Positions 18,513 to 53,760 of a stretch of 64,000 nucleotides of DNA are shown in pieces. Position 1 is the first letter of the stretch. Each line of letters opens with the position of its first letter. Position numbers and translations under genes: made by a program. The notes beneath the pieces were generated by a model. That model did not search any database. It saw only the letters and a list, made by a program, of their open reading frames with translations, and was not told the DNA's origin. The DNA lies in contig NMRA01000098.1 of assembly GCA_002633005.1 (NCBI GenBank), positions 619,435-683,434 on the forward strand, read 5' to 3'. The stretch comes from Phoronis australis. Taxonomy: Eukaryota; Animalia; Phoronida.

Positions 18513-20920
18513 AATGTAGAAATAGTAATGACAAATATCACAATAATAGTAACGCGAACGATTAGGACAATGCCAATAATGAAGTTTCGTTGCTACCATA
18601 AAATATTGTTAGTTATACGTTTCAAGATATACACGTAGAACAACCTGCAGCAGATTCCATTTCTTTTACGCAGCAATAACTCATTTTTCATTGGTGAAAC
18701 AGGGTCAAACTGACAAATAGAAAATAAAGCTCCATTTACAAGCACGAAAAACTCATTAACTTCATAAACAGCATTTCATCACTTTTAATGTACCCGACAA
18801 ATATGATTTCATTATAAGTACGGTGAAACGCAACGGCGTCATTTTTTGGCATCTTGAAATGTACAGGGTGGTAGGTGAGCACTGCAGGAGCCAGGGGATC
18901 CCAAATCACCAAGCCCACAGTTTATTGCCAAAATGCTGGGACGATTTATTACGGGAGATTGGGGAGGCAAAGCTGACGTTACACGTCTTTAATGGGGAAT
19001 GTGTGATATCGTTTTCTTCTGCTGCACGTGAGTGCAAATCTACACACGGTATCGCCACCTGTTTTATGCTTCTGACTACGCTACCGCAAAAGCTCATTCG
19101 GCGGTATAACTTCTTTGTTTCATGACAAAGCTGCGTTTGATTTATTAGCTTGTTTCATAAGAAATCTAAATGGAATGCACTGATCAGATACTTTTGACTC
19201 ACCCATTTAAGATGTTCGTCATTTGCCTGCATCAGGTTTTGTGCGATGGAACGGGTATAAATTTCTGCACTCTGTCGTATCTGCGCAATACTTCTACCGT
19301 TATACACATATCGAGGCTGTGTATTAACAAGCGACGCTGTGAAGTTTCAGAAACTCACCATGAAACATATGGTAAGCTGAAGAAGGTACCATTAAAGTCG
19401 CTTATTTAAAAAAAAAAACTTTGACTGTAATAGATTTGACCGTATAAGCAGCAATATATTCCATTAGTGCCTTGGTTAGAACTGCTCTCCTCATGATGGC
19501 ATATAAAATATTTCTAAATGTCATTTTGCTTTTATTTCCTCCAACTTCTTACTATTAAAGTCAGTTACAAATACATTGAAGGCGGCGGAAGCAGATCGTC
19601 ACCCACATTTTCAGCGTCGCTTGCTGTATAAATGTAACTGCAGTTCTTATTTCTCACGTTTCACACTACTTATCATAAATTATGACCTTATGTCACATCC
19701 AGCGTTTTCATCGTTTCATTAAAAAGTTCACTTTGGAACCTCACCCATGTTGTCTTCGCATTATTAGGTAAGAAATTTATTGCATCAACAAACAAGTACA
19801 AAAACAAAATGTAATTCAGCTTACCACCTTAAAAATATTACTACTGGACCATATGTAAAAGTTATGCCTGCTGCAACAGAACGACCACTTCTCCTGGAAG
19901 CGTTCAGGCGTAACTTTTTCCAGGTTGCGATATTGACAAATTTCACGCAATAATAATTGAAAACTAGGTTTAGCATTTTACAACCGGTGCTTATGATAAT
20001 GATATTGTGTTGAGCAGAGAATTAAATTGACAACTTCCAACCTACTGGTTTGGTTAGAGGGTTATTACACTGATCTATCATCCACGACAAAAATTGAACA
20101 AATGTAAGTCTAAAACTGTTTCTTTCTTTCTTTCTTTCTTTACTTTGCTCACGGAAAGAGCACAAAAGCTGCTGGCGACTAGCTTTATGCAAATAAGAGT
20201 TTGCCGTCTTCAAATTCACCATTTGTTCAATTTTTCTTCAAACATTTCCTTTCGCGACTGGTCTTGTTAAGTTTCAAAGTAATTCAAAATGAAGGTAAAT
20301 GTGCCAAGAAATTTATCTACCCGATGAGTGAGGAGGAATTTCTCGGATTATATGTGTGTTTACATATTTATGTTTATTATGTAGATAACGTAATGTTTAA
20401 TTAACGTAACGTAAGGTATTGAAATTTTTAAATCAGGAGTTATACTGTTGGATATGAGATGTCGCAAGGCGGGAGTACACTGTAATCTTTCAGGGGAAAG
20501 GTCCGCATAAGTCCTAAAATCGGCATGCTGACGACGTTTCCTTCTTTATTTCGTTGGTCATGTCCGTAGTCCTTCCCCCTCCTCTTAAATCAGCTTATTA
20601 GTTAGAATACGTTGATGTCTTCCGAACGCCAATCATAAGCCGGTGGTGGTTTTCAAAAGAAATTTGCAATGCTGTACATTCGCTGTTGTAGCCAGACCTT
20701 CTGCCTAAATTATAAAGACATCCCTTGCTAAAAGTTAGGCGTCCTTTACAAAACGACATGTCCCTAATTATAGAAATCTGACGTTTAAGCAATGCGACTT
20801 GAAGTCTACAAAGGACTATTCACTTTTAAATTTCGTTCACCGAGTCCCTAGATACCATGCAGTACACAGATTGGCCTTGTCCTAGTCAGTGAGAAACTCG
20901 GTGTCTTTCCCGACTCATCC

Positions 20921-21240: not shown

Positions 21241-22435
21241 CATAGTGATTTGTGTAGGCTTTTGTTGAATTGAATGACGCCAACAGTTAAGGCTTGTTAT
21301 CGGAAATACAGAAATGTGAGTGAATAATGCAAAAAGACTTCGCGCATCGACCCACTTCATGGAGAAAAGCACAACCGTTATATTTTATTCATGAAGTATT
21401 GCAACTACGAAAAGTAAGATTTTGTGTACAAAATTTAAGTCAAATTGTTACATTGGGTTTCTATCTGTAGCACCCGTGACACTAATTCACAGACAGCTTA
21501 CATGTCTATCTGAACAGCTCCATAATTTTGTCTTGTCTAAGCCACGTGTACACAAAGACCCGGTATTAGGACAATTTAAAGCACTGTACACGTGGCGTAA
21601 TCAAAAGTCAAATAAGTTGAAGTGACTTAGCACCCGTTGAGTCTTTTTCCTGCGAACAGTTTATAGATCTGGGTTGATGTATTCCGTGAGCTCATACCTC
21701 TCGCCAAAAAGATAGATCACAGACGACCACGCTAATGAAAGGCGAGCGTTTCGCAAGCATGCCTGGCAGCGTAGCCTAAAAATGGCGGACCCTGATGCGA
21801 TTGGTCGGTGAGTGGTCATGGAAAACACTTGACTGTTTCAGTTTCATAAGCGTAGATTTCTCGCCGCAAGTGCTTCGCGAGTGTCTTGGGTCTACGGAAC
21901 GCAGCTATGCGTGACAACCTTTAAAACCATCTAGTAATCAAATGAGTCATTGTAAATGAATAGTAAACATATAAGGGTAGATCCTTTGCATAAAATGTAA
22001 GTTACATGGACCGAGAGAGAGGGTTCTGTACCTGCACATGTCCGATCTGGGACCAGTCTTTATTTGGTTTATTACTAATGCTTCTCTTCTACGATTTCTT
22101 CTTCCATTAGCTTGCCTTGATTTCGTTGTTTCGATATACTGCCATTTCGTGTTCGTGGACCTGGGTCTTACCTCTGTACTCAATTAAATTGAGAGTCTGC
22201 GTTCACTCTGAGGTGGAAATTAAATCCTGTACCCAGAGGTTTATCGGTTATGCAGCTTGCATATGGTCAATTCGTTTGTGAATAGCGACATCGGTCGCTC
22301 CAGGTGGCTTCAAAAGTAATATTCCCATCCGGGCAACATCACTTCGTAACGGAGGTCATCTGATGATCATACTGTTTTCCCCAATCAGAAGTCATTACTG
22401 GTACTTAAATAAGTTTTTGGCCACAATAAGATTAG

Positions 22436-23866
22436 AAACCGGACGATCGCCGCACAAATAAAAAAAGTTCATGTTCAATTCACCGTTTCGTCTTTTTCAT
22501 TAGACATCATCAGGATCATATTTATAACAATTTAGGACAACAAGTGCCAACATACAGCTCAGGTAACATCCGTAGAGTGAAGTGAGAGATACATAGAATA
22601 TAATCAGTAGCTGGTTATCCCCATAGTTGCAGGGTCACTGAGCTCTGCATGTTATTCAGAGAATCAGTAGCATGCTGGTTCTGAATGGCCAGTGACTATT
22701 TAATGTACAGTAACTCCTTATTAGGTTCTCTGCAGATAATACAAACAGAGTTGACTTGGTGATTGTAGCTAATACAATGCCTATATATGTTACTTTCCTC
22801 TGAGGTGTGATGTTCGTTCAACTTGTCACAGATGCGTTTCTGTGTGAGTCCTATGTATACATAACATTGCTCGTTCAATAAAGGGATGGGTGATTTCAGT
22901 TTACACAGCATATTGGAAAGTTTCCGAAGAGGTTTGAAAACAACTATCAGTTCAACTGCTGGGTCTATGCAATGAATAAGGCGAGACGTTTCAATTTTAT
23001 ACTATTTGGCCCGATGTAACCAAGAGAAAAGAAAACTTTCTTTTTCTCGGGTCCAATAACATCTACCTTATCTGCCTCATTCATTTTTGAAAGGAAGTGC
23101 CTTTTACAGCTATTCAGAAAATTCAGAGGGGAAACCATTGGCACGCAATAACTGGAAAATCATAGCTACGTCACTATCAAAATTTAAATTGGTGGAGCAT
23201 ATTCTCCAGGCACGATGTAACAAGCAATTGACTAGACCTCTCTTGTACTGGATAGGCACAAAACTATCACATTTAAGATACACGGATGTAACAACGGTGC
23301 TATTCTCACGTTTAACCAAGACATCTAGAAAAGGTAAACACGACTAGCGCTCAGATTCAATGGTGAAGTTGATGGACGGATGCATTTTGTTCATGTGATT
23401 AAAAAAGGTGTTGAGTGAGCTCTTGGACGAAAACACAACAAACGTATAGTCACATACCTACGATAAAATTGTGTGACAGGCTGAAAGAACATCACACCTC
23501 ATAGAAAAGTAACATATATAGGCATTGTATTAGCTATAATCACCAAGCCAACTCCGTTGGTATTATCTGCAGAGAACCTAATAAGGAGTTACTGTACATT
23601 AAATAGTCATTGGCCATTCAGAACCAGCATGCCACTGATTCTCTGAATAACATGCAGAGCTCAGTGACCCTGCAACTATGGTGATGACCAGCTACTGACT
23701 ATGTTCTGTGTATCTCTCACTTCACTCTATGGATGTTACCTGAGCTGTATGTTGGCACTTGTTGTCCTAAATTGTTATAAATATGATCCTGATGATGTCA
23801 AATGAAAAGACGAAACGTTAAATTGAACATGAACTTTTTTATTTGTGCGGTGATCGTCCGGTTTTT
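22436..23866 (-). mobile_element. Penelope-like element fragment (RT C-terminus plus GIY-YIG) with an inverted copy of its 3' end
   Basis: YIGLTQKRICDKLNEH...SNIYRHC (22696-22911) and YKRGLVNCLLHRAWRICS...LRANGFP (23110-23319). 23474-23866 (+) is the reverse complement of ~22436-22810. Confidence 0.85.
23780..23830 (+). ncRNA. Hammerhead-ribozyme-like core in the Penelope 3' end, probably degenerate (mirror copy on minus strand at ~22475-22520)
   Basis: CTGATGA(23789-23795)-T-GTC-loop-GAC-GAAAC(23812-23816)-GTTA. Stem II is intact; stem I pairs poorly. Confidence 0.5.
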
Positions 23867-23885
23867 AACATTACCGGTACACTTC

Positions 23886-24133: not shown

Positions 24134-24573
24134 ACTTCTGTCGTGGATTGGCTCAAACGCTATGCGAGAAATGGAGTTATGAGGTTGAGTTGACCGTGTA
24201 CCTGTGGAATATCACGTATTGCTAGAAATTTATGTACTTTTCATTCATGTCGTCGGAGATCAGGTGTCGCTGTTTTTGAGATCTGACCAATTACAGGCCG
24301 CGGAAATCATATCCCTGACTGACGGTATTAGAATTAAACAAGGCGAACATACGATGGCTGTATATCAAAGGGGGTAATAACTTGACAATTTATTGCAAGG
24401 CGAACAAATCAGGGGAAAGAAGCACCAGTGGTAATATAAGAATACAAAAATAGATTGACCTATCAGACTTTGGCCTCGGGGGCACATCGCTCTTCTACGG
24501 TCCATGTGACGATGTGACGTAATACCACACTCGAGTATGTATTCTAAACAGCTGATACCATTTCACATGCAAG

Positions 24574-24968
24574 TTCCAGTGGCTGCTGCTCTTCTTGGGT
24601 CTGCTAGTAATAGTTCACACGCAAGCAGAAGACACCGAAAAACAACCTATGGAGATCTCACAAGAAGAAGACGACAACGGAATCCTGGGGGTTGAGAGAG
24701 AGATAGACGAACCTGAGGATGACGTAGAAACACAGGACGTTGAGAAAGAAGTGGAAAAATCAGTCGACGAATTACAAGACGATGGCACCGACGAACAAGT
24801 TAACCTGGCTGGGCGACAATCTAGCCAGCCTAAACCAGATTTCTGCAACGGCTGTCGAAAAATACAGCGCCTGGTCAAGAGAGGTCCTCACCCAAATCTC
24901 TATGGTTTCAGCCACTGTTACGTAATAGGAGAAGCTGCGCTGTGGACGAGTAAATGCCGCTTTCCGGG
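24574..24968 (+). CDS. Coding exon of a secreted Cys-rich prepropeptide (signal peptide, acidic propiece, start of cationic domain); in-frame start codon unresolved
   Basis: FQWLLLFLGLLVIVHTQA|EDTEKQPMEISQEEDD...QPKP DFCNGCRK...SKCRFPG. Ends at a phase-2 donor GG|gtaaaa (24969). Confidence 0.8.
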
Positions 24969-26181
24969 GTAAAAAATACATTTTAGCGTTGTTATAAACG
25001 CAATTTTATTTGTCTTTCAATTCTCCTTCCCGGTGATTAAAACACATATCACAACTTTTCTTATTCATACACTAATCTTTTCTCCATTCTGCGTTTTTTC
25101 GTTTGCATTCACGTAATAGGGGATTGAGGGGAGCCCATCCCCCAAGATTAGGCCCGCAATGGTGAAAAACAACGCAAAACGAGAAAAGATGTCCGGCACG
25201 GAAGCCTGTTTTGTGATTGATCTGCCTCTCTGTCGAAGGAAATTAAATTACACGAAAGTTTGTAGACCAAAACATGTAGCTTAATGCATTATCTTCCATT
25301 ACAAGCTTTCGGGGCTCTGTTTCAGGACAAGTGACATAAGATTAGTAGGATCACATCGACATGTATGTGCACTAGAAAACACTAGTTTTTAACTGTCAGT
25401 GAAAGTATATATTTACTTTAAGTGCAAAGCCTGTACAAAGAGATGTTTGACTCGTACCAATCTGTTATTAATTGGGTCACGTGACCACAATGTTTTTTTA
25501 GTGAAATTTAGCGAAAAAGGAAGGTACAACATGGATAGCAAAACTGCGGTGTCAATAACGTGCTCAAGTTATATTTGATGTAAATGTTCAAGGTGCAAAA
25601 GTGGAACATTTTAAGAACAATTCCTATGAGCTCTGTTGAGAACAGTGCATCAAACATAGTATATCTGAAAGTGTCATATGAATCCGATCAGCCATTTGTG
25701 AGATATGATGTTCCGAAGTCAGCCAAAATTGGTCATTTTTATAGGGTCCTGCATATTGACAGATAAAATTATTTGGTTTTACGCTTCACATAAATATTTC
25801 TGAAAAATAATTAGAATTCACTTTATCAAAAAAAAAACAAAGTATCTGAGAATATATCCATACCTGCTACTCGATAAAACAATTTGTTGAAATTATTTCC
25901 AGGCAGTGATGTGATAATAATTAGATGACTAAATCTAATTTGGTAATTGTGAAGCAGGGGCGTAATACCACGTGATAAGTCACTTTTCATGAAACGTACC
26001 CGGTAATCTAGATGACAGCCATTTCTTGTATTTTGATTGGTACATATCTAGATTCAACAGTTTGTTTGCCAGACTAGTTATATCAGCATAGTGCGAGACA
26101 AGTACTTTGTAATATTTCTCGAAGTTATAAAACTAATATGGTAAGAGAGCCGCTGCCAAATGCTTTCAAATTCTATTCCAG

Positions 26182-26353
26182 ACGTCGCTGCCGCGCCTAT
26201 TGTACCACCTACAAACAAGGAAAATGTTACACAGCGGAAAGATCAATTCGAGTTGGTTCGAGATGCTACTATTACAAAGGCAGAAGACTACCTTTTGGGT
26301 TCCCGAGAATGTTGTGGTTGCGCGTTCATTGCTGCGGCTGTGTGTATAAATGA
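26182..26353 (+). CDS. Final coding exon of the same Cys-rich cationic peptide gene
   Basis: Phase-2 acceptor ttctattccag|A, matching the upstream donor. Encodes RRCRAYCTTYKQGKCYTAERSIRVGSRCYYYKGRRLPFGFPRMLWLRVHCCGCVYK*. AATAAA at 26541-26546. Confidence 0.8.
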
Positions 26354-26779
26354 ACTCTCAAATGCTTTCATCGCGCAGTGTGAACGTGGTAATTATAAAC
26401 AAAAGTGTTTACAATAACTTCCTTGACTTTGCTGTTGTGGAAATTCTGATCGCCAATATGGTATCGTAATTTTGTGTTGTAACCCGTGCGGATTCAGCCA
26501 CTTTTTATGCTGAAGTCACTCGCGCTGTGTAACTTAAGAAAATAAAAAAATGAAATGTGCTGTAGGAACACTTTCAAGATTGATTCAATTTATTTATCGG
26601 AAGCGACAGCTTTTTGCATTCGCTTATGGCTGGTCACCTGTGTAAGAAGTTGTCAGCATACATTCTCATGCAAATTCCAAGTCGCAATCTATTGAGTGTT
26701 TATGCTTGAAAGTATACGTTTTGTAAACTGCATGCGATGAACACTGATCACCACAATCGCTCTGTGTTGTGTGTGGACC

Positions 26780-27092: not shown

Positions 27093-29535
27093 TGGTCCAA
27101 CTTACGCATAGGACCGGACGAAGATTCAGACTACGCATACCCGAAGCAAAGGCGAATGCAAACGGTCGGAATTGTCGTCTGCGTGTGCCTTATCCTGTCA
27201 ACTGGCATGCGTTCCGTACAACCATGAAACTCGCGAAAACATAAGATTTCGCACGATATCGCCATGCATTACAAGCGAATCACGTGATCCAACTATCTTC
27301 ATTTCACTAGCAAAATCCTCGAGTCTAGAGAACGCAACCCTGAAGATCATTATTTAGACTTACTGGTCGCAAGTCTCCGTTTAGACTCCGCAAAACTGTC
27401 GTAAAGTTATGTCGTAATGAAACAGACCTCACAATACCTTCTTTAACCCAGGTTTATATTATTGTTTAACAATACATTTGACAAGTAGATATAATGTAAC
27501 AGATAGGTGGGTATAATTTGTTAGCATTTCACATCGTTTCAGTTACAGCCTCTTGTTCTTTTAAGGGCAAGTCAGCTTTGGACGATTTTCCCTCCAGATT
27601 AACGTAGTCCTGAGTAAATGCTCGCTTGTACTCCGTACTAAAATAAAATGATAGAATTACAAATACACACTCAATTTTAAGTGTTGATATTAATTAGTGT
27701 TCAATGTAACAATTAAGCTAGCACAGGCCAGTTAAACAAGACCAGCGTTGATTCATGACAACGGTTTTGCAGCTGACAAGCATCAAAGGCAATCTTCATT
27801 GGAAATATGTCAGTTTAATGAGAACATTGTAAACATTCGTTCAAATGATCCCTTTAAAATTCCCGTATTTTCGACAGCGCTGATACAGCCTAAACGGTGC
27901 ATGGCACTCAGGCGTAAGTGTCTGTCTAAAACCCCGTCCACACGATTGCGTTTTCACAAGAAGAACCATACTCATCCACTAAAACGACAAACCAAGTTGT
28001 AAATTTAAAACATTCTCCAGAGTACTCATTGCACTCGTTTGGACGCCGATGCAAAAACGCAACATTTCAAAATCATAGACGCCTGTCAGTGACAATGGCT
28101 GGTTCCTCGCCAAAACACTAGATGACTGCTGTCTCTAAAAAAGCCTAACTCAACCACTGTCACATTTTTGTTACAGGGGCGGAGCCTAGTGATAGTCGCG
28201 AGTTTAAATCCCATTGCACGAGAACATAATATCAAGCAGTGTAGCAGCCTCATCCTCAAGCCTCAAATGGCTAAACCGATCCACGCCATCTTGAGGCTTG
28301 GGGACGAGGCTTGGGGACGAGGCTGGGAGTGTAGTAGAATATTAAACTCCTTGATAATATCTAGGCGCGAGACAACACCGTAGATAAAAAGTTCAAGCAT
28401 ATATTCTGGGCAATGAGATGGCAATTTTACGTGTCAACAGTGCTGATTGACATGAAAGGCAATCAGGTTTTTCAAAACAGTCTCTAATTTCTTGAGGCTG
28501 TGGAAGTCTTGATTAAGGTGTTCTTGAAAACACAAAAAGTTGGGTTTTAGGTCATATTCGTGTAGAGGGAAAACAATGTGAAACGATCGAGGACAAAAAA
28601 TGAAAGAGCAGAATAACAACGCTATCGCGTGGACAGTGTCCAAAGCTAGCTTGACAGGCGTAAAATGACGCCGCAGTGTCAAATTCAAATCCGTTTTCCA
28701 GGCGAGTACAACTTGTGCCCGATCACAATGCGGAAGTGGACGGAAAAGCCGGGTCCTGCGGAACGGCATCAATTAGAAACTAATTACTTTAAAGCTGCTT
28801 TACTTGCGTTTTGCGAATAAGACTCTAAAATTCAAATGAAACCGAATTTATGGTATGTTACATATATGGTATACCAAGAAGTTCCCAAAGTCATGTCCCC
28901 TTGCATTTTCCAACAACAATCTCGGAACTTTTATTGGGTCCCCAAAAAACTTGAAACATTGCCAATCAATTGGATCGCATATCGAAAGGAGACTCTGGAC
29001 ATGAAACGAGCGTAAAAGTTGCCAAGGTTTTGTAGAATAGCTAAGTTCAATTAAAACCAACAAATTACTGATTATTTACAGTCAATCGTCATCAAAATGA
29101 AAACTACCACAGGTCATTTAGCTATAGTGTCAATTTGCTTCGTGTAAAAGGCACCCGACTGTGTCTCTACATCCTGCCTCTTATACAACGCTTGTATTAT
29201 AAACCCCTGTTCCGTCCAAGAACCACACTTTTCACTGACAACTTACCACCAAAATTTGTCTCAACTTATTCTTTGAGAAGATAAACAGTGATGTCTGGGT
29301 TTAGAAAGAACTGCTGACAGTATGTGAGTGCTCGACACTAGGCTCGTTACATGAAGTGACACGCCGTGACAAGCCTCAACTCGAGCACCAACACCAAACA
29401 TTCCGTTGGTTTGAAGCCCTGTAATCACCTCCAATTTGACTAAGGAACAATTTGAGACCAATTTCATGTGTTCTAAATCAGATTTTTTTTTGCAATGAAA
29501 GGCAGGTTTATTGCCGCCTTAACTGTCATACGTAC

Positions 29536-29675
29536 GTTCCGAAACTTTCACCATCAGTCAACGTTTCCGGTAGACGCATTCGGTTTGTTTCTGGTAACAG
29601 AACACCCAGAATACCAGCCACTAAGGGAAGCGACCCCATCAGGACGGAAGAGAAACCAAACCAAACATACTTGTC
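29536..29675 (-). CDS. SLC22 exon 9 (140 nt; an alternative donor lies 4 nt further)
   Basis: ctgtag|DKYVWFG...[21 protein letters not shown]|gtacgt. Confidence 0.9.
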
Positions 29676-32600
29676 CTACAGCGAGTAACACAATCTTCAT
29701 AGTCGGATGATGAACAAGAGCAACGCTGAGCGTTGAAATGCGCCCACGCCTTCACCGCAAAGGGTGTGCTTCTTAGGGGCGTTTATTAGTACGATAAAAA
29801 TGGTAATTAGACGGCACAGAATACATTAAACATTGTAAGGTGTCGTCTCTCAAAACTATTTGCCATACTTCATGAAAATATGTCTAAAAACTCTAAATAT
29901 ACAAAGACAAATGAAAAAAAAATGCCATGAGGAACCACAACAGTAGTCGATTCCGTCCATCTGTTGTCAAGTCAACAGGTGCAAATGCAAAGTTTCAACA
30001 GCATTTTGCAAGGGGTTTAGAAGATACAGCCGAAAATCCACGTAAGTCATGCTCTTGTTGGTTGAAACACATCTGCCAATTTCCATAATGACCCTCTGCG
30101 CGGTTTGGCAGATACAGAAGCAGACGTCAAAAACAGACTCAAAAGTAATTAAAATAGTCACAAGTTGGTGTAGAATACATGTACGTCGAATACATCACAG
30201 AATGAAAATGTGATGTCGTCTTCATACTAGAAACTTGTTTTCAAAATTTTCTGAAAACGTATCAAGGAACTCTGAACTTACAGAGACAAATGTAACAAGA
30301 GTAACGCGGAGATCATGAAAAGGAATGAAATGGCTTTAGTTGAAATGTAAAAAACATTTTGAACTAAAACCTTATTTCTGAAAGAGCAAATCGCTGTTAA
30401 TAATCCCTTTCATGAATTTTTGCTTTTTATGTTATAATTTTTGTTAAAACAGTATTCCGTCATTGACGGACAAAAATCATCTAAAAACGCAAACATGTAT
30501 AAGTTACTTTTCTCAATTTACAGAAACTTGGAACAAAGCAGAAGGGATACTTCCTTTTTAAGTAGTTATTTTTTATACTTTGAATGTTATTCCGGGAATA
30601 TGAAGCCTATAGACCCTTCATATTGTTTCTTACTAGATGTATAAGCTGAGGCGCGAGAAGGCTTCCCACTCTGGCGCATGTGGACCCCGTACCAAGGGCA
30701 ACGTTGCGAACCACAGTGGGGAATAACTCGGCGGTAAACACGTAGACTACAGCGAAAGCAGCGCTACTCCCAAACTTTCCGATGTTTGACAACACAACTA
30801 CATACGTCTGGAGTCCTGAAAAATGTGAAATCTCGCAGTCACACAATTCGCAAGACGTTGGAAAAAAATGAAATGTGCAATCTTCCGGCTTTGAACTTTT
30901 ATAGAATGATCAGCAACAAAAATATTTAAAAAGTGTTAAAATCGCTCAATAAACGAAGCAAACAAAAGTAGAAAATTGAGAAGCACTGCTAGGAAGAAAT
31001 AAAAGTTTATTTTACCTGGATTATTTAGCCCAGGTATTGAAGCTAGCAAAGAGATCCCGGCCAGAAAAGATGTTGCCAACAGAATCCATCGACGACCAAA
31101 CCGGTTGAGAACGAAACACACCATAATGCATGCTGGGATTTCCATCAAGGCGTTGATCACTGTGTTGACGTATACATTGCCACCGAGCGAGCCCGTGTTG
31201 TAGGACAAACCATAGTAGACAAAACTGCAAACAAACCTGGAAACCGCGAGCTGTTTACACAAAGAGTACGTCGAAAGAATGTGGCGTAATTGTCAAGCCA
31301 TTGTTGTAATCGTCAACGTCACTCGCTCACCGTGTTACCATCACCGCTTCCACCATCATCACCACCACCATCACCAAGACAATCACCACCCCCAACAATA
31401 TCACTACCATGATCACCACCAACACCACTACCACACCATCCTCACCAACACCATCGCCATTACCATCACCACAAAAATCAGTGCCATCACCACCACCACG
31501 ATCACCACCAACACTACTGCCACCACCACTACCACCACCATCATGATTACGACCACTACCAACACCGCAATCATCATGATCACAATCACCACCCCACCGC
31601 CATCATCAAGAGCATTATCATCATCATGAAGTTCGTGATCGTCATCACTATCACCATCCTTACCAACGTCATCACCACCACTCATCCGTATAACTATCAC
31701 CATCACCGTCGTCACGATCACTGGCCACCAGCGCAAACTTACTGTTGTTACGACATCACCAAGTCGGGCCATCACAATCGTTGATCACCATAAACCCAGT
31801 CATTTCCAAGTGAGCTGCGTCATGCTGCTATCATTACAATTTTATGCAATATGGTGATTTGGATATTATGGTCTTGTACATCTTCTGCACACGAAAACGT
31901 ATATACCGTATTCACGCAGTCGCCATTTTCAAAGTGAGCCACTTTTTAGGTTTTAAAAACAATGCATTTTGCGCTTAAATACAGCGCAAGGCACGATTGT
32001 TTTCGCATAACTCGTTATATTCATGTCTCAAATGCATTGTTTTTTAATTATAAGAAGAAGCTCACTACTAAAATGGCGATTGCTTGAATAGTCTATGTGA
32101 GTACTCGAATAACCTACCCTGGAAGCCAACAAAAGTTGTGACATTATGTGTGGCTATTACAAATCAGCGCGTTGATATGTTGTTAAGTAAGATTTATTAG
32201 TCTTCTCACACGTGACATGTCGCTCACATGATGTGATCAGTTAAGTCTGATAAGATCTCTGTCACTATCAACAGGGGCTTTCTACTTACCAAGGAGACGC
32301 TCTAGTCCACCGAGCTATCGGGATCAAATGTTGATTACAGAAATCCAATCGGACATACAGGAGGCATGTTACTCAAACTTGGAGTGCATATACATGTACA
32401 CAAGGAGAACACCAATTCTTACTTACATCATGCAGTTAAAAATATGTCCCCCTGGTGGATTATTGGAGAAATACGGTTGAAAAAGTTGGCGTGAACTCTG
32501 CCAAAATACTTAGTTACACCCCCTCCCCTCTTGGAGATATGAAGTAGCAGAATCAAGAGCTTGCGAGGGTCCGTAAAGTCACGTGGATACGTCGCTACGG

Positions 32601-35600
32601 GTAGTGTATTTCCCTTAAAAGTAGTTTTCTGACATGCTCGTCCAGTGACCAAGACAACCTTCTAAACAGTATTTTCGTTAATCCTGCGTTTCTATGATGA
32701 CACATACCAGCAAAACGACATTATTAGCAATCGTGTCCTCATTCGTGGACGGCCAAGGATGTTCAGCAACGTTGCTCTTTCGTTATGTTCGATGTCGTAC
32801 TTTTCCTGAAATAGTTCAAAATCGACAGTGTACTTTAGGACTCTGTTCAGTCAAACACAGTTCAGAGCAAAGGGACATGTTACCTCTCCATCTTCGCACA
32901 TATTTAATTTAATATTCCTACATGTAGGCGAATAGTACCACTCAGCACCATCTGATTAGGGTCACTTGGTGGTAGCATAGTCCCGCTCATCGTCATCCTT
33001 ATAAATATGAATACATTGTATGCTAATCAACACCTTTTTGCCGAAGTCAGAGCCACCACAATGAATGTTGTCCTCTTCATCGCTTGTCATCACCGTCGTT
33101 ACAATCCATCACCAGTATAGCAACCAGTTGTCAGTGGCATTGATGTATGCATGCAAGAAGGCTATTCTATATGAAACACAAAGCAATACACAATCCGTAC
33201 TCATGAAAAAGTGTGAGTGCTTCAGCTATTTATCGCATGACCGAATGAGCTGAAAAAGTTGCACAAAACAATGATGTCCGTGATGAAGTGAATCTAATGT
33301 GTGTCAGAATAAATATTGATTAAGTAATTAGTAAGAATAGATCCATTTTAAGTTGCCCAAAATTTGTGCATATGTACTTTTAAATCATGGGGTCAGACTT
33401 GTTGACATGTATTTTAACGTCAAAATCTATTTTTAGATGGTGTTTACAACTTTGGGTTCTGGGGTCAAAGTACTCTAGAGATTCTAGAATGTTCTGAGAA
33501 CAAATTGTAACAGCCAATAATACGAGTGGATATGATCATGTGGTTTTTATTAGCCAATCACTAAATAAGTAGAATGTTATATTATGGGCTGAAATCAGCA
33601 AGATAATCAGATGCGCTATAGTAGTTGAAGCGTAAGGACTTGCTACAGTGTACAGAAGCAGTTGTACGACAGAGCCATCTCGTGGAAGATTCTAGAAAGG
33701 CATCTTGGCAAGGGCAAGGGTTAACGAACCGGAAGTTAACTAAGAGCTTGTCACTTGCATTGTGGGTAGTAAGATACTACCTGAAGTGTTGCGTCATCAG
33801 CCAGAGACTGTGACCAGCAAGAAGAGTCGCGGGTAGAAGAAATTGCCTGCAAGTGTTGAATCACCAAAGACGGTGACCAGCAAGTACACTGTCGCTATAC
33901 AGTGTGTGTAGTTCGAAGATTCACCAACAGGACAGACATCCAACAAGTGGAGAGTCCTAGCTTGGATAGCAGATAAGACATTTGATCGTTTGGTTGTTTG
34001 ATTAAAGTAATCGTTAAAGAGGGCGCTAGCGTAGTTTCTCTTTGTAGTTGATTGCTTAATTAACAATAGGTTTCATTTGTCTAATTAGGGGTTATCATAT
34101 AATAAATTAATTACTGGATTTGATTATTCACTCTCCATCTACGCACAACTTTAAAGCATAGCTACCTTTTAAACAAACCCACACAGACAATCGTCTGACA
34201 ATGCGTTTTCGGCTTCTTGCAACATAAGCTCATTAGTGCACTTGATTTATTCCGACGGTTGATTGGTCTGTAAGCCGGAAGTCGTCATCCAGAACCAATC
34301 AAATGTCTTAGCCGGCTGGCCAGGGGAACCGGCGAAGTGAATCAAGTGCAGCCATAGTATTAGTCGAAGTCATCTGGTTACATAGCCTGCTAACAATTCT
34401 TGTCCGTTAAACGGTTGATTAGATTATTGATACAATTCAATACCTTTAAGACTGATTCATTAAGAGAACATTTTTTCTTTTTGCTATGTTACCTTTTTGT
34501 AAAACTTCTGCAGCTCTGTTGGGAATGGTTTGTTATTTCTTTTCGCTATGGTTCTCATTATAACTTCCGCTTCCGCTGGCCTATTTTCAGCGTAAAGCCA
34601 ACGAGGAGATTCAGGGACCAACCTGAAATCAATATCATAACCACAAAATCGGAATTACAGAGCGAGTGGATGAACACCAAATAGGTTTTACAGACAGTGG
34701 CAATTTTGTATCAGTCTCACAAAACACCCAAACAACAATAGTAGTGTGGACCAAGAGATTAGTGGAAATTGTATTAATTCACTATTGCAAGAAACTGGAT
34801 CAAAAACATTTACGCTTTGTAATGCGCTGCGTGGCCCAGGCCTACGTTACTTGTACAACTAATCGCCCAGTTCAAGCCTCCAGCGCATACTCGGTGCCGT
34901 GCAAGCTGAAAATACAGCAAGGTTCCTAATTGTACTGCCTTCCGAAAGTTCCGTTGACTAGCTGTGATGGGTGTCGATTCAATGCTGTACGTCTGTTACG
35001 AACTAACAACGCAGTACATGCGGATAGTGAGATTTTAAATGCATTGCCCTTACCCAGCGGAAGTTAACATGGAGTCATAGAATAGAATTATTTGTTTTAG
35101 TGAGGGGACCAATCTGTCCCCTTGTCAGTAAGGACCAGGCCTCGTTACTAAATTATTCGACATCCTTTCTAAGACTAATCATGAGCAAGAATAAATTGAA
35201 GCCGTCTAGTCTTATGTTATGGCACTAGTCGGTAGACGCGAGTGTAGTCCTCATATTTGAAGTGTAGTTAAAGATTCATGCTAGTGCAGCTCCATTAATA
35301 TCAAATTCATTCCCGGTGAAAGCGGGAAGCCTGTATTGAACTGACTGACAAGTTAACTCAGATACCTAGTTCTAGTTAACGATTTTGGCCTTTGATGCCT
35401 CGGAGTTTACAATTTGAACACCTCAAAGCCACTATACATCAAGTTCTCGTGTCAAATACGACCTTCTTCACGAGCGTACTTGTTCATGTAGAAAAGCGTA
35501 AAATGTTGCGTTTTTATCATTTACTTGAACTGAAATTGGTGACATTAAAATGACTGAATTTTCTGAGGCGGCCACGTTTCATGATGAATCGTCAATAACA

Positions 35601-38600
35601 AAGTCGCGGCCACTCTTACGAAAAGGCTGTGGTTTAAAATTATCTCACCAGATATAGCTTAGCAGAAAAACAGTAGGCATCGCCACCGCCAGTTGGAGGA
35701 AAAAATGATCCCTCACGAAGTAGGCAATTCCACACAGGATAGCAAAACCGGCGGCAAACCAACATGCGACCAGTGCACCCAAGTACATCCGGTATTTCAC
35801 ACCAGCTATTTCCATAACTGAAAGAACAAGAACAACGCAGGGCGTTGAAATGCGGCCACCAATGTATGGCGAAGGTGTGCTTCTAGGGGTGTTTATTTGG
35901 AACATAACAATGGCCTCTAAATGGCGCAAAATACGTCGAATACATCTGAAAACTGGTATGTGTCATCAAAGCTATTTACCAAATTTCATAGAAATCCGTC
36001 AAGGAACTTCTGAGAAACCGAGAAGAACGAAAAAAAAATGAAATTGCCACTAGGAGGCTACAGGTGCAAAAACATAACTGCCACTAAGCGGCGCCACAGT
36101 AGATGAAGTCGTAGGAAAATCCTCGTCAGACGTCCTCTTCACAGTAGAAACATTCATGCCAATTTCCAAAACGCTCCATAGAGTGGATTGGTTGACAGAG
36201 GGGCAGACGCCAAATAACAAGACTCGAAAACAGTAAAAAATGGCCATAGAGGCGCACAATACCACAAGCTAAAACAAAAACCGGAGGATAGCGTCAACTC
36301 ACAAATAGAAGCCTATCTGCCAAATTTTATGAAAATCGGCAAAGGACCTTTGAAGATACAAAGGTAAACGTAACAAACTAAAATTGCCACTAGGGGGCAC
36401 ACCAGTAGTCCGATCCGTCGGAAAGTCGTCGTCCTCTGTTGTCAACTTTATATAAATACACTAGCAAAGTTCAACAACGATCCTGTTGAGCGTTTAGGAG
36501 ATACAGCCATGAGCGCAAAAAACAAACAAAACTGCCACTAAGAGGCACAACATTAGTCCAAGTCGTCGGAAAATCATCGTCAGCAGCCCTCTTCACAGTA
36601 AGAACATATATGTCAATTTTCAAAATCATACCTAGTACAGCAGTTTGGTTGATGGAAGGGCGGACGCCAAAAACAGACTAGAAAACATTAAAAATGGCCA
36701 CTAGGTGGCGCAAAGTACTTCGAATCCGTCCGAAAACGGGAGGATAGCATCACCTCACTAATAGATGCCTAACTGCCAAATTTTATGAAAATCCGTTGAG
36801 GACCTCCGAAGATACAGAGGTAAGCGTAAAAAACTAAAATTGCCACTAGGGGTCACACCGGTAGTCGGAGAGGTACGAAACCCGTCGTCGTCCTTCGTCA
36901 GCTTCATAGAAACACATCTGCCAAATCTCACCAAGATCCTGTGAGTGGTATAGGATATACAGCTGCGGACGCCGGACCCCCGGACAGAGATGATAGCAAT
37001 ATGCGACCCGACATACAAATATGTGGGAGCATAAAAATCATTCTGCGCTCCGACCAGCTTCGGGGGTTTAAAAANNNNNNNNNNNNNNNNNNNNNNNNNN
37101 NNNNNNNNNNNNNNNNNNNNNNNNNNNNNNNNNNNNNNNNNNNNNNNNNNNNNNNNNNNNNNNNNNNNNNNNNNNNNNNNNNNNNNNNNNNNNNNNNNNN
37201 NNNNNNNNNNNNNNNNNNNNNNNNNNNNNNNNNNNNNNNNNNNNNNNNNNNNNNNNNNNNNNNNNNNNNNNNNNNNNNNNNNNNNNNNNNNNNNNNNNNN
37301 NNNNNNNNNNNNNNNNNNNNNNNNNNNNNNNNNNNNNNNNNNNNNNNNNNNNNNNNNNNNNNNNNNNNNNNNNNNNNNNNNNNNNNNNNNNNNNNNNNNN
37401 NNNNNNNNNNNNNNNNNNNNNNNNNNNNNNNNNNNNNNNNNNNGGGGGAGGGAAGATGGGGCGGAGCCAGGAGGGAAGGCGGGAAGGGGGGAGGGCGGGA
37501 GGGAAGGCAGAAGGGATCGGTGGATGGATGGAGGAAGGAGGGATGGAGGGGAAAGGGAGGGAAGGCGAGAAAAATATATTTGATTCAGAATAAAAGACAA
37601 GAGTAAATGGAAGGAAATAAACCACATATACAAACACAAAAATTTGCTGACGTGGCATTTTCACTTAAACAAGAACAAGCTCAATTCTGCGTTCAGATTG
37701 GTCTTACTTAAAACGAACGACACCGTTATACACCCTGCAGTCGCGTTGCCAGCGAGAAACCGCAGAATCACGAATGGCACATAGTGTCCGTACTGTGACG
37801 TCAGCGCTGCAGACAGGGACGAAAGAATTTGCAGGACTATCGACGCCAGTAGAGCCTTTTTACGACCATATCTAGAACAGTAGCATTGTTCACAGTTATG
37901 TTTTTTATTTATACAAATTATAGTTTGCTCTTTAATATACCTGAAATACCTGACAGTAAACGCATAAATGCGTGAAGGTAGGTTACATTTCTGTAATTTA
38001 GGAAATATTCTCGTTTTCATGTTTTTCGATTGATAGAATTCATTCTGTATTCCAAAGTGGGAAGTTATTCAAAGCCCCAAAAAACTTTCAAGGAATCATT
38101 TCCTAATCATAAATACTTACAGAACCAGACTGACTCCACATATTTCGTAACATGTTAACTCTTTCATTCAAATACTGTTTCAAAATTTCCATCTCTATGA
38201 TATATATGCGCGCACGCGCTCAAGGAAGTCGGACTGGGTGCAGCTTTTAAATCGCCATTGTTTTACATACAACAAAGCTCAAAGGTCACGTTTTCCATAT
38301 AAGGGAAATGTGCTTGGTCTATGCCTTGTTATACAGAATAAGCACTGACGTAGAAAAGAGCAAATATGTTTCAACATGAAAATAAGTTACGGAAGCAGAG
38401 AGGAGCTGGAACCACCGCAAACCAAAATTCAAATACATACAAAATAAACTGACAATGTCAAATATTGTTTCAATTGCAAACTCAGAGGTGTGATGTCCAT
38501 TTTGAAGATAATTCAAAAGCTGTTGGGAATTAAAAAAAATGATTTAATGACCAATACACTTACATGTCTGATATGGTCCCAAACGTAACAGCACCTGTCA

Positions 38601-41600
38601 AAAATCCCGTCATGTAGATGGACGATGCGAGAGCCACTAGATATTCTTTATTGCAAACTAAATCCCACTGAAAAAATCAATACACAATGCCAAGAAATTT
38701 ACACTTCTGTAAAAGTCCATTTTATCTTTTAACATTCAGAATTAAAATTTTTAAAACAATCGACTAACGATACCGTCATTTTGTGTTTAATCCAGTTATT
38801 TTGTATTCTTGGGGACCTTATCGATAAGCTCGTGTATGAAAACTAAAAACATTTTTTACTAGAAGTAGAAAATCTGTAGAATTTACTTTTCACTTTATAG
38901 CATTCTTTCATGGACTGGATCACGTGAAATTTAGCAAAAAAGAAAGGAACTTTCCAAGTCAAACAACAACATCAATAATATGACGAAATTAATTTTGTTT
39001 GATCGTGATAAATCTTCAAGAAGAGACCTTAAAAATCACGATTGTAAGTTTTCTAAACTATCATAATTAATTTCCGTTTTATGCAATTTATATAATTTTT
39101 TTCAGACAAAAAAAAGTTAAACATAAAATATTTGATAACAGCTCCTGCAATAGTGGATCATTTAATAACAATTCTATAAAGTGTTTTAGAGAGCAACGCA
39201 TAAAGCATAGTAGCTGAAAGTTTCATTTGAATCCAATCAGCCAATGCTGCGATACGATATTCCGAAGTTGGCCAAGTATGAACATTTTTCTAGGTTCATA
39301 CATTGCTTTAAGTTGTAACCGAGGTACACGTATAAGAAATGCATGCGTTCCTGAAGCTCAAGCGAACCACAGGACTGGATCAAGATTCAATCGCCTTTGC
39401 ATGAAGAATGTTTGAGAGAAGACACGGGTTAGTCGGTAAAGAGGAGGTTTCAGAAAAGTGTCTATCGACCGTTTTACAAGCAATTACCATAATGCTAACA
39501 TTCTGGACAACCAAGTGCGATCACCAATGGGCTAACACAGTATAACCACCAGTTACGTTATCGCAATGTAGTCTGACCATGTTAAAAAGGCAGATTCAGC
39601 TGTCCGATTTTGGGGCCGTTCAAGTGCGATTTTTTAAGACAGTGAAATAATGTCTTAGACGCATAAATATGTCTTCGTTGACGATTTGGACCAATGTCTT
39701 TTAAAAGTTTGTAATGACGTCTACATCGAGCTAAAGAACGGCCACGGATTACACACCACACTTGAATCGCGCGGCGGTTACCCAGCGACGCTGCAACATC
39801 CGTTTTTGCGCCATGGGCGCTTCTCATGTTACTTGTTGGTGCCTTGCTTTTCATTGTTTTCGACTGTATTCCCTGCAGGCTTATTCAACCTTCCAATACA
39901 CGGGCGAGGTGTAACTGCTGTGCTGTAGGTTTCAACTCCTGTGACAGAAAGTGGGGTAAACTTGAGAAGTATTCCGTTGATGCGATATTTTCCGAGAGGA
40001 TTCCTATAATGAGTCCGACATTTCTAAAACGAAGACAGTGAAACAACGCGTTTTCCTATCTCCAGGACAAAGGACCGTCTATTAGCAACAGCTTCATAAA
40101 GCACGTTCATTTGAAACTGTTTTATACCGTAGAGACACAAAACATGGCTGAGTATTGACCCTCAAGGTTTTAGGTTTTCACTCTCAAACATATGGGTGTG
40201 TGTATGGCTAGAGAATAAAGTTCGTTATTTCATGCGCACAAGCTGAAAACCCGCACGGTTGATCGTGATAGCTCATTTTATGAACCGAGCGCAATCTCCA
40301 GCACACACAAATTGGCAGTTCAAAGCCCCGTAGAAACCACTTCTCAACTGATAAGGCAGGCCCAGGAACAACTTGAGACTAGTTTTATAGTAGTAGTCGA
40401 TCTGAATCGAAAATCAAATATTTATACAGAGTGTACGTCTTCAAGCCGGGTAACGGGAGTGACAAGGGTATACAGCACTTACGCTTGCCGGAATCTGTCA
40501 CAGATTCTCGAAAAAACGTTTTAATTTTCACTGAATATACCCACTTTGATGTTAACTACCTATGGAATGATTCTCGAAAAAAGGCTCTGATGTGAGCATA
40601 CAAGCTTGAACTCTAGTAAATCAATGAGTGGGCCTTGCTTGCTTATTGCGGGTGTGCAGGTATGTTTGACCTGAAATCATTCATTGAGTTCATACTCAAG
40701 TCACGGGGCATCTTCGTCTGACTAATTAATGTCTTGAATACAGTTCAGTTTTTAAGGGTCATTTTCATATCAGTTTTACTCACTGTAGCAGTGATTTTGC
40801 CCCTCTTTATTTTTCCACGTCTGTCTTTCCAGAGACTACATTTTTGTTCTATTTTCGCTGTTACATCATGCAGTTACTTACGGCGTAAATGTCGTGATTA
40901 ACTTCCGTCGAGAGAGACAAAATGGGGTAAACTCTTTGTGTTATGGTGCACAAATATTGGGCTTCAGTTGGAAATTGTATGCATCAAGTTCTGTAAACGT
41001 GTTTTAGAACTAACAGGTTTGTTTAAGTGACTTTCAAAAAATCACTCGTATCTGTGAAGCTTAGTGTATGGGTGTGTGCGTGCGTGCGTTCGTGCGTGCG
41101 TGCGTGCGTGTGTGTGTGTGTGTGTATTTGTGTTCGCATAAAATAATTTACTGTTTTCAACTGTTTTTTTAATAATTCATTTGTACAATGTTTACATGTT
41201 GCCCACATAGTTTTTTGTTAGTTCGATTTCTAAGCAATGAATTTTATCTGTAGTGTGAAATAAAATTTAAAAAATGAAAGGTTTACCTGTAAAAAATCTA
41301 ATCCAATACATGTACTTTGCGTTGCTGAGAACGAATTCAGGGTGTACGATAGAATCATTACGCACGAGCATCGCATCTTACACATGAACCATTTACGAAC
41401 TTATGAATCATGCATACGAACCCATGAATCATGCATTCGAACCAAAAAATCACGCATACGAACGAAAATCATTTGCACGAACCACACAAATCACACATAC
41501 AAACACAAATAACGAGCATCCGAATCATATGCACAAGCCACCAACCGATAATAAGTATTCGTGCATGTGATTCGATGCTCGTATGTGTGATGTTGTGTTC

Positions 41601-44600
41601 GTATGTATGATTTATGTGGTTCGTGCCCACGGTTTTTGTTCGTATGCGTGATTTTTTTTTGTTCGCATGCTGTATGATTCATGGGTTCATATGCATGATT
41701 CATAGGTTCTAAGAAGGTGCGTGCGTAAGATGCAATTCTCCTGGGTATGATTTTATGTTACCCCTGGCATTGTATTTGCCAATTTTCCCGCTCTTGCCGG
41801 ACTATTTCACTTTACACTTTTCCCGCCATCCTGCCACACCATCAGCGAGTCCCCCACGGCGACATTGACATATCACATACTACTCTAATTTCAATGCCCT
41901 ATTAGACATTTACGGGTCCCGTAGAATAAGTGGAGGGGCGGGCCCGTAATCAAATGCTCATGCAACGATCATCTCAAAGCAACAGCAAAATATGAGTAAT
42001 TTTAACTTTTGAGACAGAAAGAAATTGAGACGGATTCTACATGTCGCGACAATGTGTCTATTGGGCAACTTTAGCTGTTGGTCGAACTCGACGGTTTTAG
42101 TGTATTTCACACGCTGCTAATCAAGGGACCCGCGCTTGTTCCAATTATAATATCAACAATGGTACCTTTGTCAAATAAATGCCTTTCGAGCAAATTTAAG
42201 CTTTGCACATTTTGCTACTCTGTACCTTAAAAACGTCAATCAAACTGCAAATTCAATGAATTCTTATCGCCTTGGCGAGTCTCTGCACTGTTGAAAGCCA
42301 GTCTTTTTTATGTGCACGCTTGCGCTTTGAGTAGCAATACGACACTATAACATTGCTAACCCAGTGATGCCTCCTACCCTTGACCCTACAAATATTGAAA
42401 ATGGCGGGGCCACACACAAACTTCCAAACCGAGGTCGCATCATCGGAGGCAGCGCTTCCAAAGGCGTAGAAACATGTGTACGTTCATGATACTGGTGCCT
42501 CCAAAATGCTGTGAGGGCGGTGCCCCAAAAAGCGCGGAGCCCATAGAATGGGCAACTTCTCCTATGTTGCTAAACCGGAAACGGTAATTTTCCACGCAAC
42601 ATAGCACTATTTTCCCGTTCGACTAAACAGAAAAAAACGGGACATTCCACGGGTTTTTACAGGCAACCGCAATTGCTTATTCGATTTAAAAAGCGCCATC
42701 GAGCGTTTTGAGTATATCGTCTCCCGTTCTAGAAAAAAAAACGGTCTCGGAACGCTTTTAATTTGTGTGTTGAGACGAACATTTCACCCTTGCGTTTTTG
42801 CGAAGACGTCCATGTCCCGCTTGTTAGACGGAAGTCCCACTTTTCAATCCAGTTGTCCCGTATTTTTATTCTCGAATGTTGACAACTATGGAACAGGTTT
42901 TCCTTTGTCTTTTTGTCATGAATATTGTTATTTTCCAGAGTCCACTTTCTTTAGTAACATAGCAATCGTAAAAATGTGTTCAATGTCTCTTGTTTACAGT
43001 GACACACGCTGCATGAATCAGAATCACTAATTTTTACTTTCTGAAGAAATTAGTATATTTACAAACTACTATGGAAAATCCTATGCTGCAACCTAAGTAA
43101 GGATATATCCACAGTACATTTCAAACCCACACAAGTAGTAGTAGTAATACACTTTATTCACTTTAAGTCAAAAACACAATAGATATTGGCCATTTTTTTC
43201 AATCAGAAAGCCTTTATCTGCAAATTTCGGATAAGTAGTCGGAATAATTAGTTTATCACATTTTTGTAAATGTCACTGGACCCTGAATTTTTCTGAAGAA
43301 CTGCATGAAACGGCACCCAAAGTGTATAAGTGTGGATGAATTCATGACTAAATTCTTCACAGGAAATGTGAGGGAGACATATATTCTAAAATCTTTGTCT
43401 TGAAAGGATAGAAATCATTTGAATCTTTGAAATTATTTCCCTGCTGGTTTCATTAATCATTTACATAACCTCTCTGGTTCATTTCCTTTTTTGTGATACT
43501 ATTTCACCCTTGATGTTTAGAATTAAAAATATTTTTGAACCTGTCAGGTGTAGGAAATGATGATTAATTATGAGGGAAATGACGATTAATTATGAATTAT
43601 TTTTTTATCGTTTGCTTCTTCTATAATCATACACCATCAAGAACTGATGAAGGGCTTTGTATTGACATGACTTTTAAGCAATTCGGTTGAAAAACGGCGG
43701 ACTTGTGAAAAGTTCTAGTGACAGTAAATTCCAGCAATAACCAACACTGGCGAAACTAACGAATGCAAACAAATGTCACGCATACACGGAGCAACCTCAC
43801 CAGCGCAAGATCGAAGTTGGCATTCCAGGGTTAGAGTTCAATTATGAAACGGATTTTAGGGTAAGTTAGTTCGGTCGAAACTTAAGGCCAAAAATGTACA
43901 GCTCCGAACGTACCCCCCACCTAAAATGGCCGCCGTAGTGAGACAGCTGACTTGTGCGTTATGGGTACTCACTCAACTGTAGTCAAATCTGATGGGGTCA
44001 TCGTGGAAACCCCCGCCCATTTTTTTAAAAAATGATTGAAAAATTATTAGTAATTGAAGTAAGGCAAACATAAATAGGGCTTAAATTTATTAAATGAATA
44101 TTTCGACTGATGAAACTCATCATTTGCTCTGAATTGTGAATGTAAAGAAACGAGTATGTTTAACTAATGGACATGGGGTCAGCAGTGTCATAAAATAAAA
44201 GCTAGCCACTCGACTATGTCAAAAGCGCAAGTGCGTGTGCAGCTATTTATTTGTGATTTGTTATCATTAATCTAAAATTGAGTTGTCAAGCCGCTTTGTT
44301 AAACCAAAGATAAAGTAGTCCTCACTGAGATCAAAACCAACGAGAAGTGTTCATTCAGCCTTACAACATTTGTGCTCCAGGAAAACAGCTTCTTCGCAAC
44401 AAGCTAGCTGTATTTCCTTTCTCACGAATCACAAAGAAGGACTCCATTTTTAAATGGGAAGCTCGATCGCTAAAGACTAGTCATGGTTTGTGAGAAAGAA
44501 GCGGGAAACCAACTTGCAAAAAATGACCGCAGTGCGAAAGAAAGAAGACATTTCTTGTGAGAACATTGCACGCGAAGATAACACTCATAATAATGGAAAG

Positions 44601-53600: not shown

Positions 53601-53760
53601 AACCTCTAGTTGGAAGCTTTCCAACATGCTGTGTAAACTGAAGTAACCCATCCCTTTAGTAGCAATGTTGTTTATAAGGTTGAATGTGACAACTGTGAGG
53701 AATTCTACATCGGACTAACACAGAGACGCCTCTGTGACAGGCTGAAAGAACACCTCAGAG
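50640..53760 (-). mobile_element. Penelope-like element (RT plus GIY-YIG), with a MITE insertion and an inverted segment at 53320-53760
   Basis: DKGNGIVIMDK, HKDGVPLRPIVS, SLDVCSLFTNVP, DGMAMGSPLGP, YRRYVDNT and FYIGLIQ. Same family as 22436-23866. Confidence 0.9.
51759..52772. mobile_element. 1-kb hAT-type non-autonomous element with 5-bp TSD CATCC, splitting the Penelope RT at NVPVD|EVFELCL
   Basis: Termini CAGTGGCGGAT...ATCCGCCTATG. CATCC at 51754-51758 and 52773-52777. Confidence 0.9.

Follow-up and report, generated by a model that had tools for sequence, protein, structure and literature searches.

A predicted secreted precursor with a charge-mirrored acidic propiece and an eleven-cysteine cationic domain in Phoronis australis

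Two plus-strand open reading frames (ORFs) in a 64,000-nucleotide stretch of Phoronis australis DNA (the window) raise the question of whether they belong to one gene and, if so, what kind of protein that gene would make. The first-pass annotation read them as a spliced, secreted prepropeptide whose mature part is an enlarged macin. Our preferred reading, to which we assign a probability of roughly 0.5, is a lineage-specific secreted defense peptide with a charge-neutralizing propiece and an unusual disulfide frame, as judged from the sequence. The main features of the locus are as follows.

24580..24627, plus strand: hydrophobic signal-peptide-like segment ending in HTQA (hydropathy peak 3.4)
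24628..24816, plus strand: acidic propiece of 63 residues (net −21, pI 4.05), closing with a lone Arg as putative cleavage site
24817..24968, plus strand: predicted N-terminal half of the mature domain, starting with Gln and containing CxxC, an amphipathic basic segment, an internal Lys-Arg site, and four Cys
24969..26181, plus strand: intron of 1213 nt predicted by splice scoring (phase 2, GT-AG), with one repeat fragment
26182..26353, plus strand: last coding exon, with seven Cys (CxxxC, GKC, terminal CCxC), rich in Arg and Tyr, ending in TGA
26541..26546, plus strand: polyadenylation signal AATAAA

The predicted product falls into two oppositely charged parts. The hydrophobic leader is as originally annotated, and the charges downstream of it were recovered as well: with a boundary at 24837, a 70-residue propiece holds 26 Asp/Glu against 6 Lys/Arg (net −20), and the 100-residue domain that follows holds 21 Lys/Arg against 3 Asp/Glu (net +18) together with 11 Cys, at domain positions 3, 6, 27, 40, 47, 51, 59, 72, 94, 95, and 97. 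A single Arg codon at 24814 to 24816, followed by Gln, offers another boundary; a cut there would give a 63-residue propiece and a 107-residue peptide of net +19, and the reported mirroring of charge, −20/+18, becomes −21/+19. Cleavage at the internal Lys-Arg site would instead leave 85 residues with a net charge of +14 and nine Cys. The predicted mature peptide has 16 aromatic residues, and the helical moment reaches 1.0 at residues 13 to 23 of the N-terminal half of the mature domain. As far as sequence can tell, a secreted prepropeptide with a charge-mirrored acidic propiece and a cationic, Cys-rich domain is supported.

We propose that a spliced, single-copy gene gives rise to a secreted precursor in which the acidic propiece masks a cationic, aromatic, disulfide-rich peptide that would likely act in host defense after cleavage. 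The signal would be removed after HTQA, the −21 propiece would neutralize the peptide during transit, and a protease would cut 3' of the Arg at 24814 to 24816, releasing the 107-residue, +19 peptide with Gln at its N terminus. Once freed, the peptide would attach to anionic surfaces of microbes via Arg, Lys, and aromatic residues, and the odd eleventh Cys would either stay free or bridge a dimer. Pyroglutamate formation after propeptide removal has precedent in an excerpt of PMC3182236. According to passages of a review (PMC10608444), marine antimicrobial peptides such as centrocins and strongylocins carry anionic propeptides of 15 to 30 residues that neutralize the mature peptide. The phoronid precursor shares with them the succession of signal, anionic propiece, and cationic mature peptide, but its propiece is longer (63 to 70 residues) and its Cys array is unlike theirs.

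The two ORFs can be joined, as first annotated, through a phase-2 GT-AG intron predicted from sequence, with the donor GG/GT at 24968/24969 and the acceptor AG at 26181/26182. With generic splice-site weights, the donor is the top scorer between 24840 and 25000 (92.6th percentile), and the acceptor lies at the 94.5th percentile and ranks fourth in its interval. The same GTAAAA donor is used by a neighboring SLC22 gene. The two exons have GC contents of 0.49 and 0.47, above the 0.35 of the intron and in line with four SLC22 exons (0.47 to 0.53) out of five measured, the fifth having 0.44. The AATAAA reported 3' of the stop codon is present as a single copy, 188 nt past the stop. We infer that exon 1 is spliced to exon 2. 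Within the intron, the strongest donor-like site (26138 to 26146; score 4.14) sits immediately 3' of an ATG that is 41 nt away from the acceptor; this site is probably not used in splicing.

Chance controls were applied to both exons. An ORF combining a leader with an acidic stretch appeared in none of 100 simulated windows, against two matches in the real one, the second of which we take to be a His/Thr repeat on the minus strand at about 31.4 to 31.8 kb. The CxxxC-GxC-CxC motif appeared in 3 of the 100. Among the 754 ORFs of the window, no other has a 40-residue stretch as acidic as that of the propiece ORF (20 Asp/Glu; the runner-up has 13), and exon 2 alone carries the Cys motif. Across the last exon (26182 to 26349), none of the plus-strand frames is interrupted by a stop, as in 1 of 1260 sampled stretches. 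A 3-periodic codon model, which was trained on six SLC22 exons and found the right frame in six of six leave-one-out tests, scores both alternative frames of exon 2 above the proposed one, by about 5.7 log units, and fails to distinguish among the exon-1 frames. We give this result little weight because the training set is a small set from a membrane protein, from which a peptide rich in Cys, Arg, and Tyr departs, and because only the proposed frame has a patterned Cys array.

The open frames and the codon model would suit a different use of exon 2, in which the product is either an unspliced, possibly amidated four-Cys peptide with Gly at its C terminus or the outcome of another donor leading into another frame of exon 2. 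Reading through exon 1 does give Gly followed by a stop, but this is a property of every phase-2 GG/GTAA donor. Residues 2 to 20 of the mature domain (24838 to 24900) resemble helix 1 of NK-lysin over 19 residues (E 0.53, with a query picked post hoc), yet the six-Cys saposin-like array ending in C-x5-C is absent. Given that the proposed donor tops its region and that the patterned array is confined to the proposed frame, we consider this alternative very improbable.

The start of the gene requires a different account from the one first given. The ATG at 24567, annotated as the start, opens a 42-residue ORF in a frame other than that of the leader and propiece. In the leader frame, a stop lies at 24553 to 24555, and the first ATG is at 24649, 3' of the leader; therefore, the gene either requires an upstream exon or bears a frameshift. 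The features that bear on this choice are listed below.

19256..19377, plus strand: tentative first coding exon, with TATAAAT at 19256, ATG at 19360, and a strong phase-0 donor at 19372
20289..20300, plus strand: second tentative first coding exon, with an ATG in A-rich context and a phase-0 donor at 20295
24552..24579, plus strand: branch-point-like pentamer and candidate phase-0 acceptor adjoining the 5' end of the leader, the branch-like A lying 24 nt before the acceptor end
24567..24569, plus strand: ATG of the first-pass annotation, its frame differing from that of the leader and propiece

A short upstream exon would supply the ATG through a phase-0 intron, and from the sequence we lean slightly toward this explanation. 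Possible joining points are 24574 and 24580, with the branch-like motif 18 or 24 nt 5' of them, although the splice score of the candidate acceptor at 24579 reaches only the 75th percentile. Eight combinations of an ATG with a strong donor occur between 3000 and 24540, including the one at 19360, and they may be due to chance. In the portion of PMC7203481 that concerns gene structure, gastropod big defensins have their ATG on an upstream exon followed by a phase-0 first intron, which provides a precedent. A frameshifted allele, a pseudogene, or an assembly error would account for the start with clearly lower probability, and some other explanation is less likely still. In the most specific form of this alternative, the ATG at 24567 is genuine and a small frameshift before the leader has recently disabled the gene or allele, or reflects misassembly, such that this copy yields no precursor. 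The off-frame ATG just 5' of the leader, the lack of an in-frame one before it, the modest acceptor score, and the single Ns and one gap in the assembly fit this history. Yet about 185 codons run without any further lesion, both splice sites and the polyadenylation signal are intact, a branch-like motif and a phase-0 acceptor mark the point at which an upstream exon would attach, and candidate upstream exons are present. We regard a disabled or misassembled copy as unlikely.

An SLC22 organic-ion transporter gene on the minus strand (29529 to 45390, six exons traced) marks the window as animal DNA; one of its exons matches OCT1 in the PDB with an E value of 4.5e-9. The peptide gene lies downstream of it on the opposite strand. 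A convergent arrangement is most likely, although the peptide gene may instead be nested in a last SLC22 intron, leading to a last exon beyond the six traced. Directly 5' of the peptide gene, two repeats of about 400 nt (22432 to 22830 and 23472 to 23868) lie in inverted orientation with 94% identity and likely represent the ends of a nonautonomous DNA transposon; the interior of this element matches 50747 to 51505 and 53336 to 53676. A broken non-LTR retrotransposon occupies 143 to 2753 on the plus strand, with a reverse transcriptase (Pfam RVT_1, E 2e-5) and a C-terminal segment that is presumably a restriction-like endonuclease, and its stretch at about 143 to 430 is repeated at about 1970 to 2260. 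A reverse transcriptase fragment lies on the minus strand at 51450 to 51698 (RVT_1, E 3.6e-4; the one match in 120 of 176 ORFs scanned). The window contains no Rfam or tRNA genes. Nor did we find a paralogue of the peptide gene within the 64 kb. Defense peptides often occur in clusters; therefore, the single copy in the window counts against the defense reading.

Searches for relatives were blank for both halves of the peptide. A word-index protein search returned no homologue for exon 2, among longer proteins, or for exon 1. With exon 2, phmmer gave no match at E values up to 0.001 against 1.84 billion representatives, and ESM Atlas yielded no usable match for either exon. In metagenome scans, one per half, none of the 503 and none of the 357 pattern matches stood up to confirmation. 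A match to a viral contig, one of 22, consists of 10 residues in an unrelated 45-codon frame and is due to chance. When each half was scanned separately, no Pfam family appeared at E values up to 10 and NCBIfam gave nothing meaningful; PDB sequence searches reached E values of 0.25 to 0.76 at best. Among the 15 papers that a literature search listed, none contained the phrase “eleven cysteine”, which does not imply its absence from print. As a control, the SLC22 exon that matches OCT1 in the PDB was also unmatched in the word-index search. Blank searches are therefore weak evidence of novelty, since the collections cover this animal poorly. The first-pass annotation assigned no named family and pointed to macin and defensin profiles; indeed nothing matched either half, these families included, at the Pfam threshold given above, but the claim is only as strong as searches that also missed the control. 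The absence of relatives weakly fits a fast-evolving defense gene. Overall, this is probably a real orphan gene whose functional design is known and whose cysteine frame is unusual.

To place that frame, we compared it with published arrays, using as reference the table of Cys arrays and loop lengths in supplement 1 of PMC5116183, read and counted by eye. All array patterns were drawn after the sequence had been seen, and the shuffle counts given below show nonrandomness, not which fold is present. The description of the domain as an enlarged macin does not hold: its spacing is 12-6-3-7-12-22-1 against the near-invariant 6-14-3-9-6-8-1, 27 of the 33 macin rows start with 6-14 and none with 12-6 (PMC5116183), and a relaxed macin pattern fails too. 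As in hydramacin, theromacin, neuromacin, and the mytimacins, extra Cys flank the core and could make a C1-C7 bond (Cys27 and Cys72), but the Cys spacing, the long acidic propiece, and the lack of a Pfam or PDB match for either half set the phoronid domain apart.

The wider assignment to the CS-alpha-beta group survives in part. Six core Cys (40, 47, 51, 59, 95, and 97) provide the expected CxxxC, CxC, C2, and GxC-type C6. A loose CS-alpha-beta array occurred in 148 of 20,000 shuffles, and C-x6-C-xx-[HY]-C followed by GxC in 8 of 20,000. The strict published ranges fail, however, as the gap from GxC to CxC is 35 residues against a C6-C8 maximum of 18 in the table of PMC5116183. The closest likeness is to the short n-loop CS-alpha-beta cis-defensins of ticks, scorpions, and bivalves, which share C-x6-C-x3-C, an aromatic residue preceding the second Cys of the helix, a GxC, a terminal CxC, secretion, and cationic charge. 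They differ in that their corresponding gap is at most 18 rather than 35, whereas the phoronid domain has five extra Cys and about 100 residues. From its sequence, CS-alpha-beta membership is possible.

The big and beta-defensins (trans-defensins) offer a second defensin-type frame. A loose big/beta-defensin array with Gly and Glu at set positions occurred in 0 of 20,000 shuffles, and we take these two residues to occupy the beta-defensin positions. The strict big-defensin array, C-x6-C-x3-C-x13/14-C-x4-CC, is absent, and only a loose one with a C4-C5 gap of 21 instead of 4 is found. The big-defensin consensus, as given in passages of PMC10608444, includes C-x6-C-x3-C and a terminal CC, and both are seen here, as are a coding sequence divided between two exons, a predicted N-terminal Gln, and an N-terminal part predicted, with low confidence, to be helical. 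The gene, by contrast, lacks the big-defensin features of a phase-1 intron before the Cys domain and a dibasic or furin site following a short prodomain. According to parts of PMC3182236 and PMC7203481, the big-defensin intron lies in phase 1 between the N-terminal and Cys domains; here, it is in phase 2 inside the Cys domain, after the first core Cys, and the propiece ends in a single Arg. In the source passage on the oyster big defensin, the propiece consists of 13 cationic residues ending in RXKR, unlike the long anionic one here. The N-terminal part of the phoronid domain also differs in being basic and Cys-containing.

The third frame that fits belongs to cystine-knot ligands. The domain could be a divergent ligand of the Spaetzle/neurotrophin type, with Cys 6, 40, 47, 59, 95, and 97 forming the knot, Cys94 the dimer bond, and 3-51 and 27-72 extra bonds; the acidic part would then serve as an unstructured prodomain, cut off after Arg. 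A knot would explain both the odd number of Cys and the size of the domain. Six Cys at family-like spacing plus an extra one beside the fifth are present, and this Spaetzle-type array arose in 7 of 20,000 shuffles; the fit is weak given the C-terminal block, as 1123 of 20,000 shuffles fit once the real block is fixed. A net charge of +18 is unusually high for such ligands. Spaetzle proteins, as described in portions of the sources, have an extra Cys next to number five of the knot (PMC2772990) and count seven Cys, with a single bond linking the dimer (PMC8637286), and the mosquito Spz1C domain has 102 residues and a dimer bond at Cys-94 (PMC9427763), comparable with 100 to 107 residues and CC at 94 and 95 here; excerpts of PMC4079206 and PMC11087794 give general background on knot families. 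With 11 residues, the III-IV gap is as long as the neurotrophin motif in PMC2772990, but that motif is matched at only four of its nine fixed positions. Thus, the precursor resembles these ligands in its signal, prodomain, C-terminal domain of about 100 residues after Arg, terminal CCxC, and odd Cys count, and differs in its four extra Cys, its far higher charge, and its lack of family motif residues or of a profile match (no Pfam family in either half at E values up to 10). We consider this identity improbable.

Structure models were obtained by single-sequence folding, without an alignment and for each half separately, with pLDDT values of 59 for exon 2 and 54 for the exon-1 part. At this confidence, and with the first four Cys absent, the exon-2 model is all strand, including a strand rather than a helix at CxxxC; the exon-1 model shows two helices. 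Foldseek with the exon-2 model returned NGF chains in 5 of 19 rows, all with E values of 3.9 to 9.9; in a second structural comparison, all 19 stayed below Z 2. The exon-1 model returned nothing below E 2.6. Wide structure searches with these low-confidence half models gave best Z scores of 2.1 and 4.8, and a two-chain prediction of the halves scored 0.02.

On the features compared, the domain falls outside the macins and the big defensins; it may belong to the CS-alpha-beta or the cystine-knot superfamily. A defensin-type frame with large insertions is the most likely fold. Taken singly, CS-alpha-beta leads, tentatively, a fold of another kind comes behind it as a doubtful second, and the big/beta-defensin and cystine-knot types are each unlikely and on a par. 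Of the three frames that fit, two are of defensin type, and a net charge of +18 is high for a growth-factor knot; the defense reading is the best supported. A competing reading of function is a secreted, nonimmune cationic protein that belongs to an adhesive, a matrix, or a venom or acts in reproduction, its acidic propiece serving safe storage only. The richness in Tyr, Arg, Gly, and Cys seen in the domain, together with its orphan status, also suits such proteins. Moreover, CS-alpha-beta arrays in the consulted part of PMC5116183 cover toxins and members that are not antimicrobial. The domain has no repeats, though, and the KCXN motif that the same passages tie to toxicity is replaced here by K-C-Y-T; we hold a nonimmune role to be quite improbable.

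A bolder reading is possible, if doubtful: the peptide may found a family, so far undescribed, of large effectors that are secreted, share a new 11-Cys frame, and are kept latent by the charge-matched propiece. Within that joint possibility, the frame would take one of two forms. In the first, a defensin core carries a CxxC helical cap and a cationic, aromatic hairpin of 21 residues with Cys72-Cys94 as its closing bond. In the second, a cystine-knot dimer of the Spaetzle type has become an effector that acts on membranes with a charge of +18. The precursor logic, an anionic propiece masking a cationic peptide, is already well known. Should the domain prove to be a cystine knot, it would represent a highly divergent ligand of the Toll/neurotrophin type or an instance of such a scaffold in effector use. 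If the preferred defense peptide is expressed and active, it would add a new disulfide scaffold to the host-defense peptides of invertebrates and provide a clean test of charge masking by the propiece.
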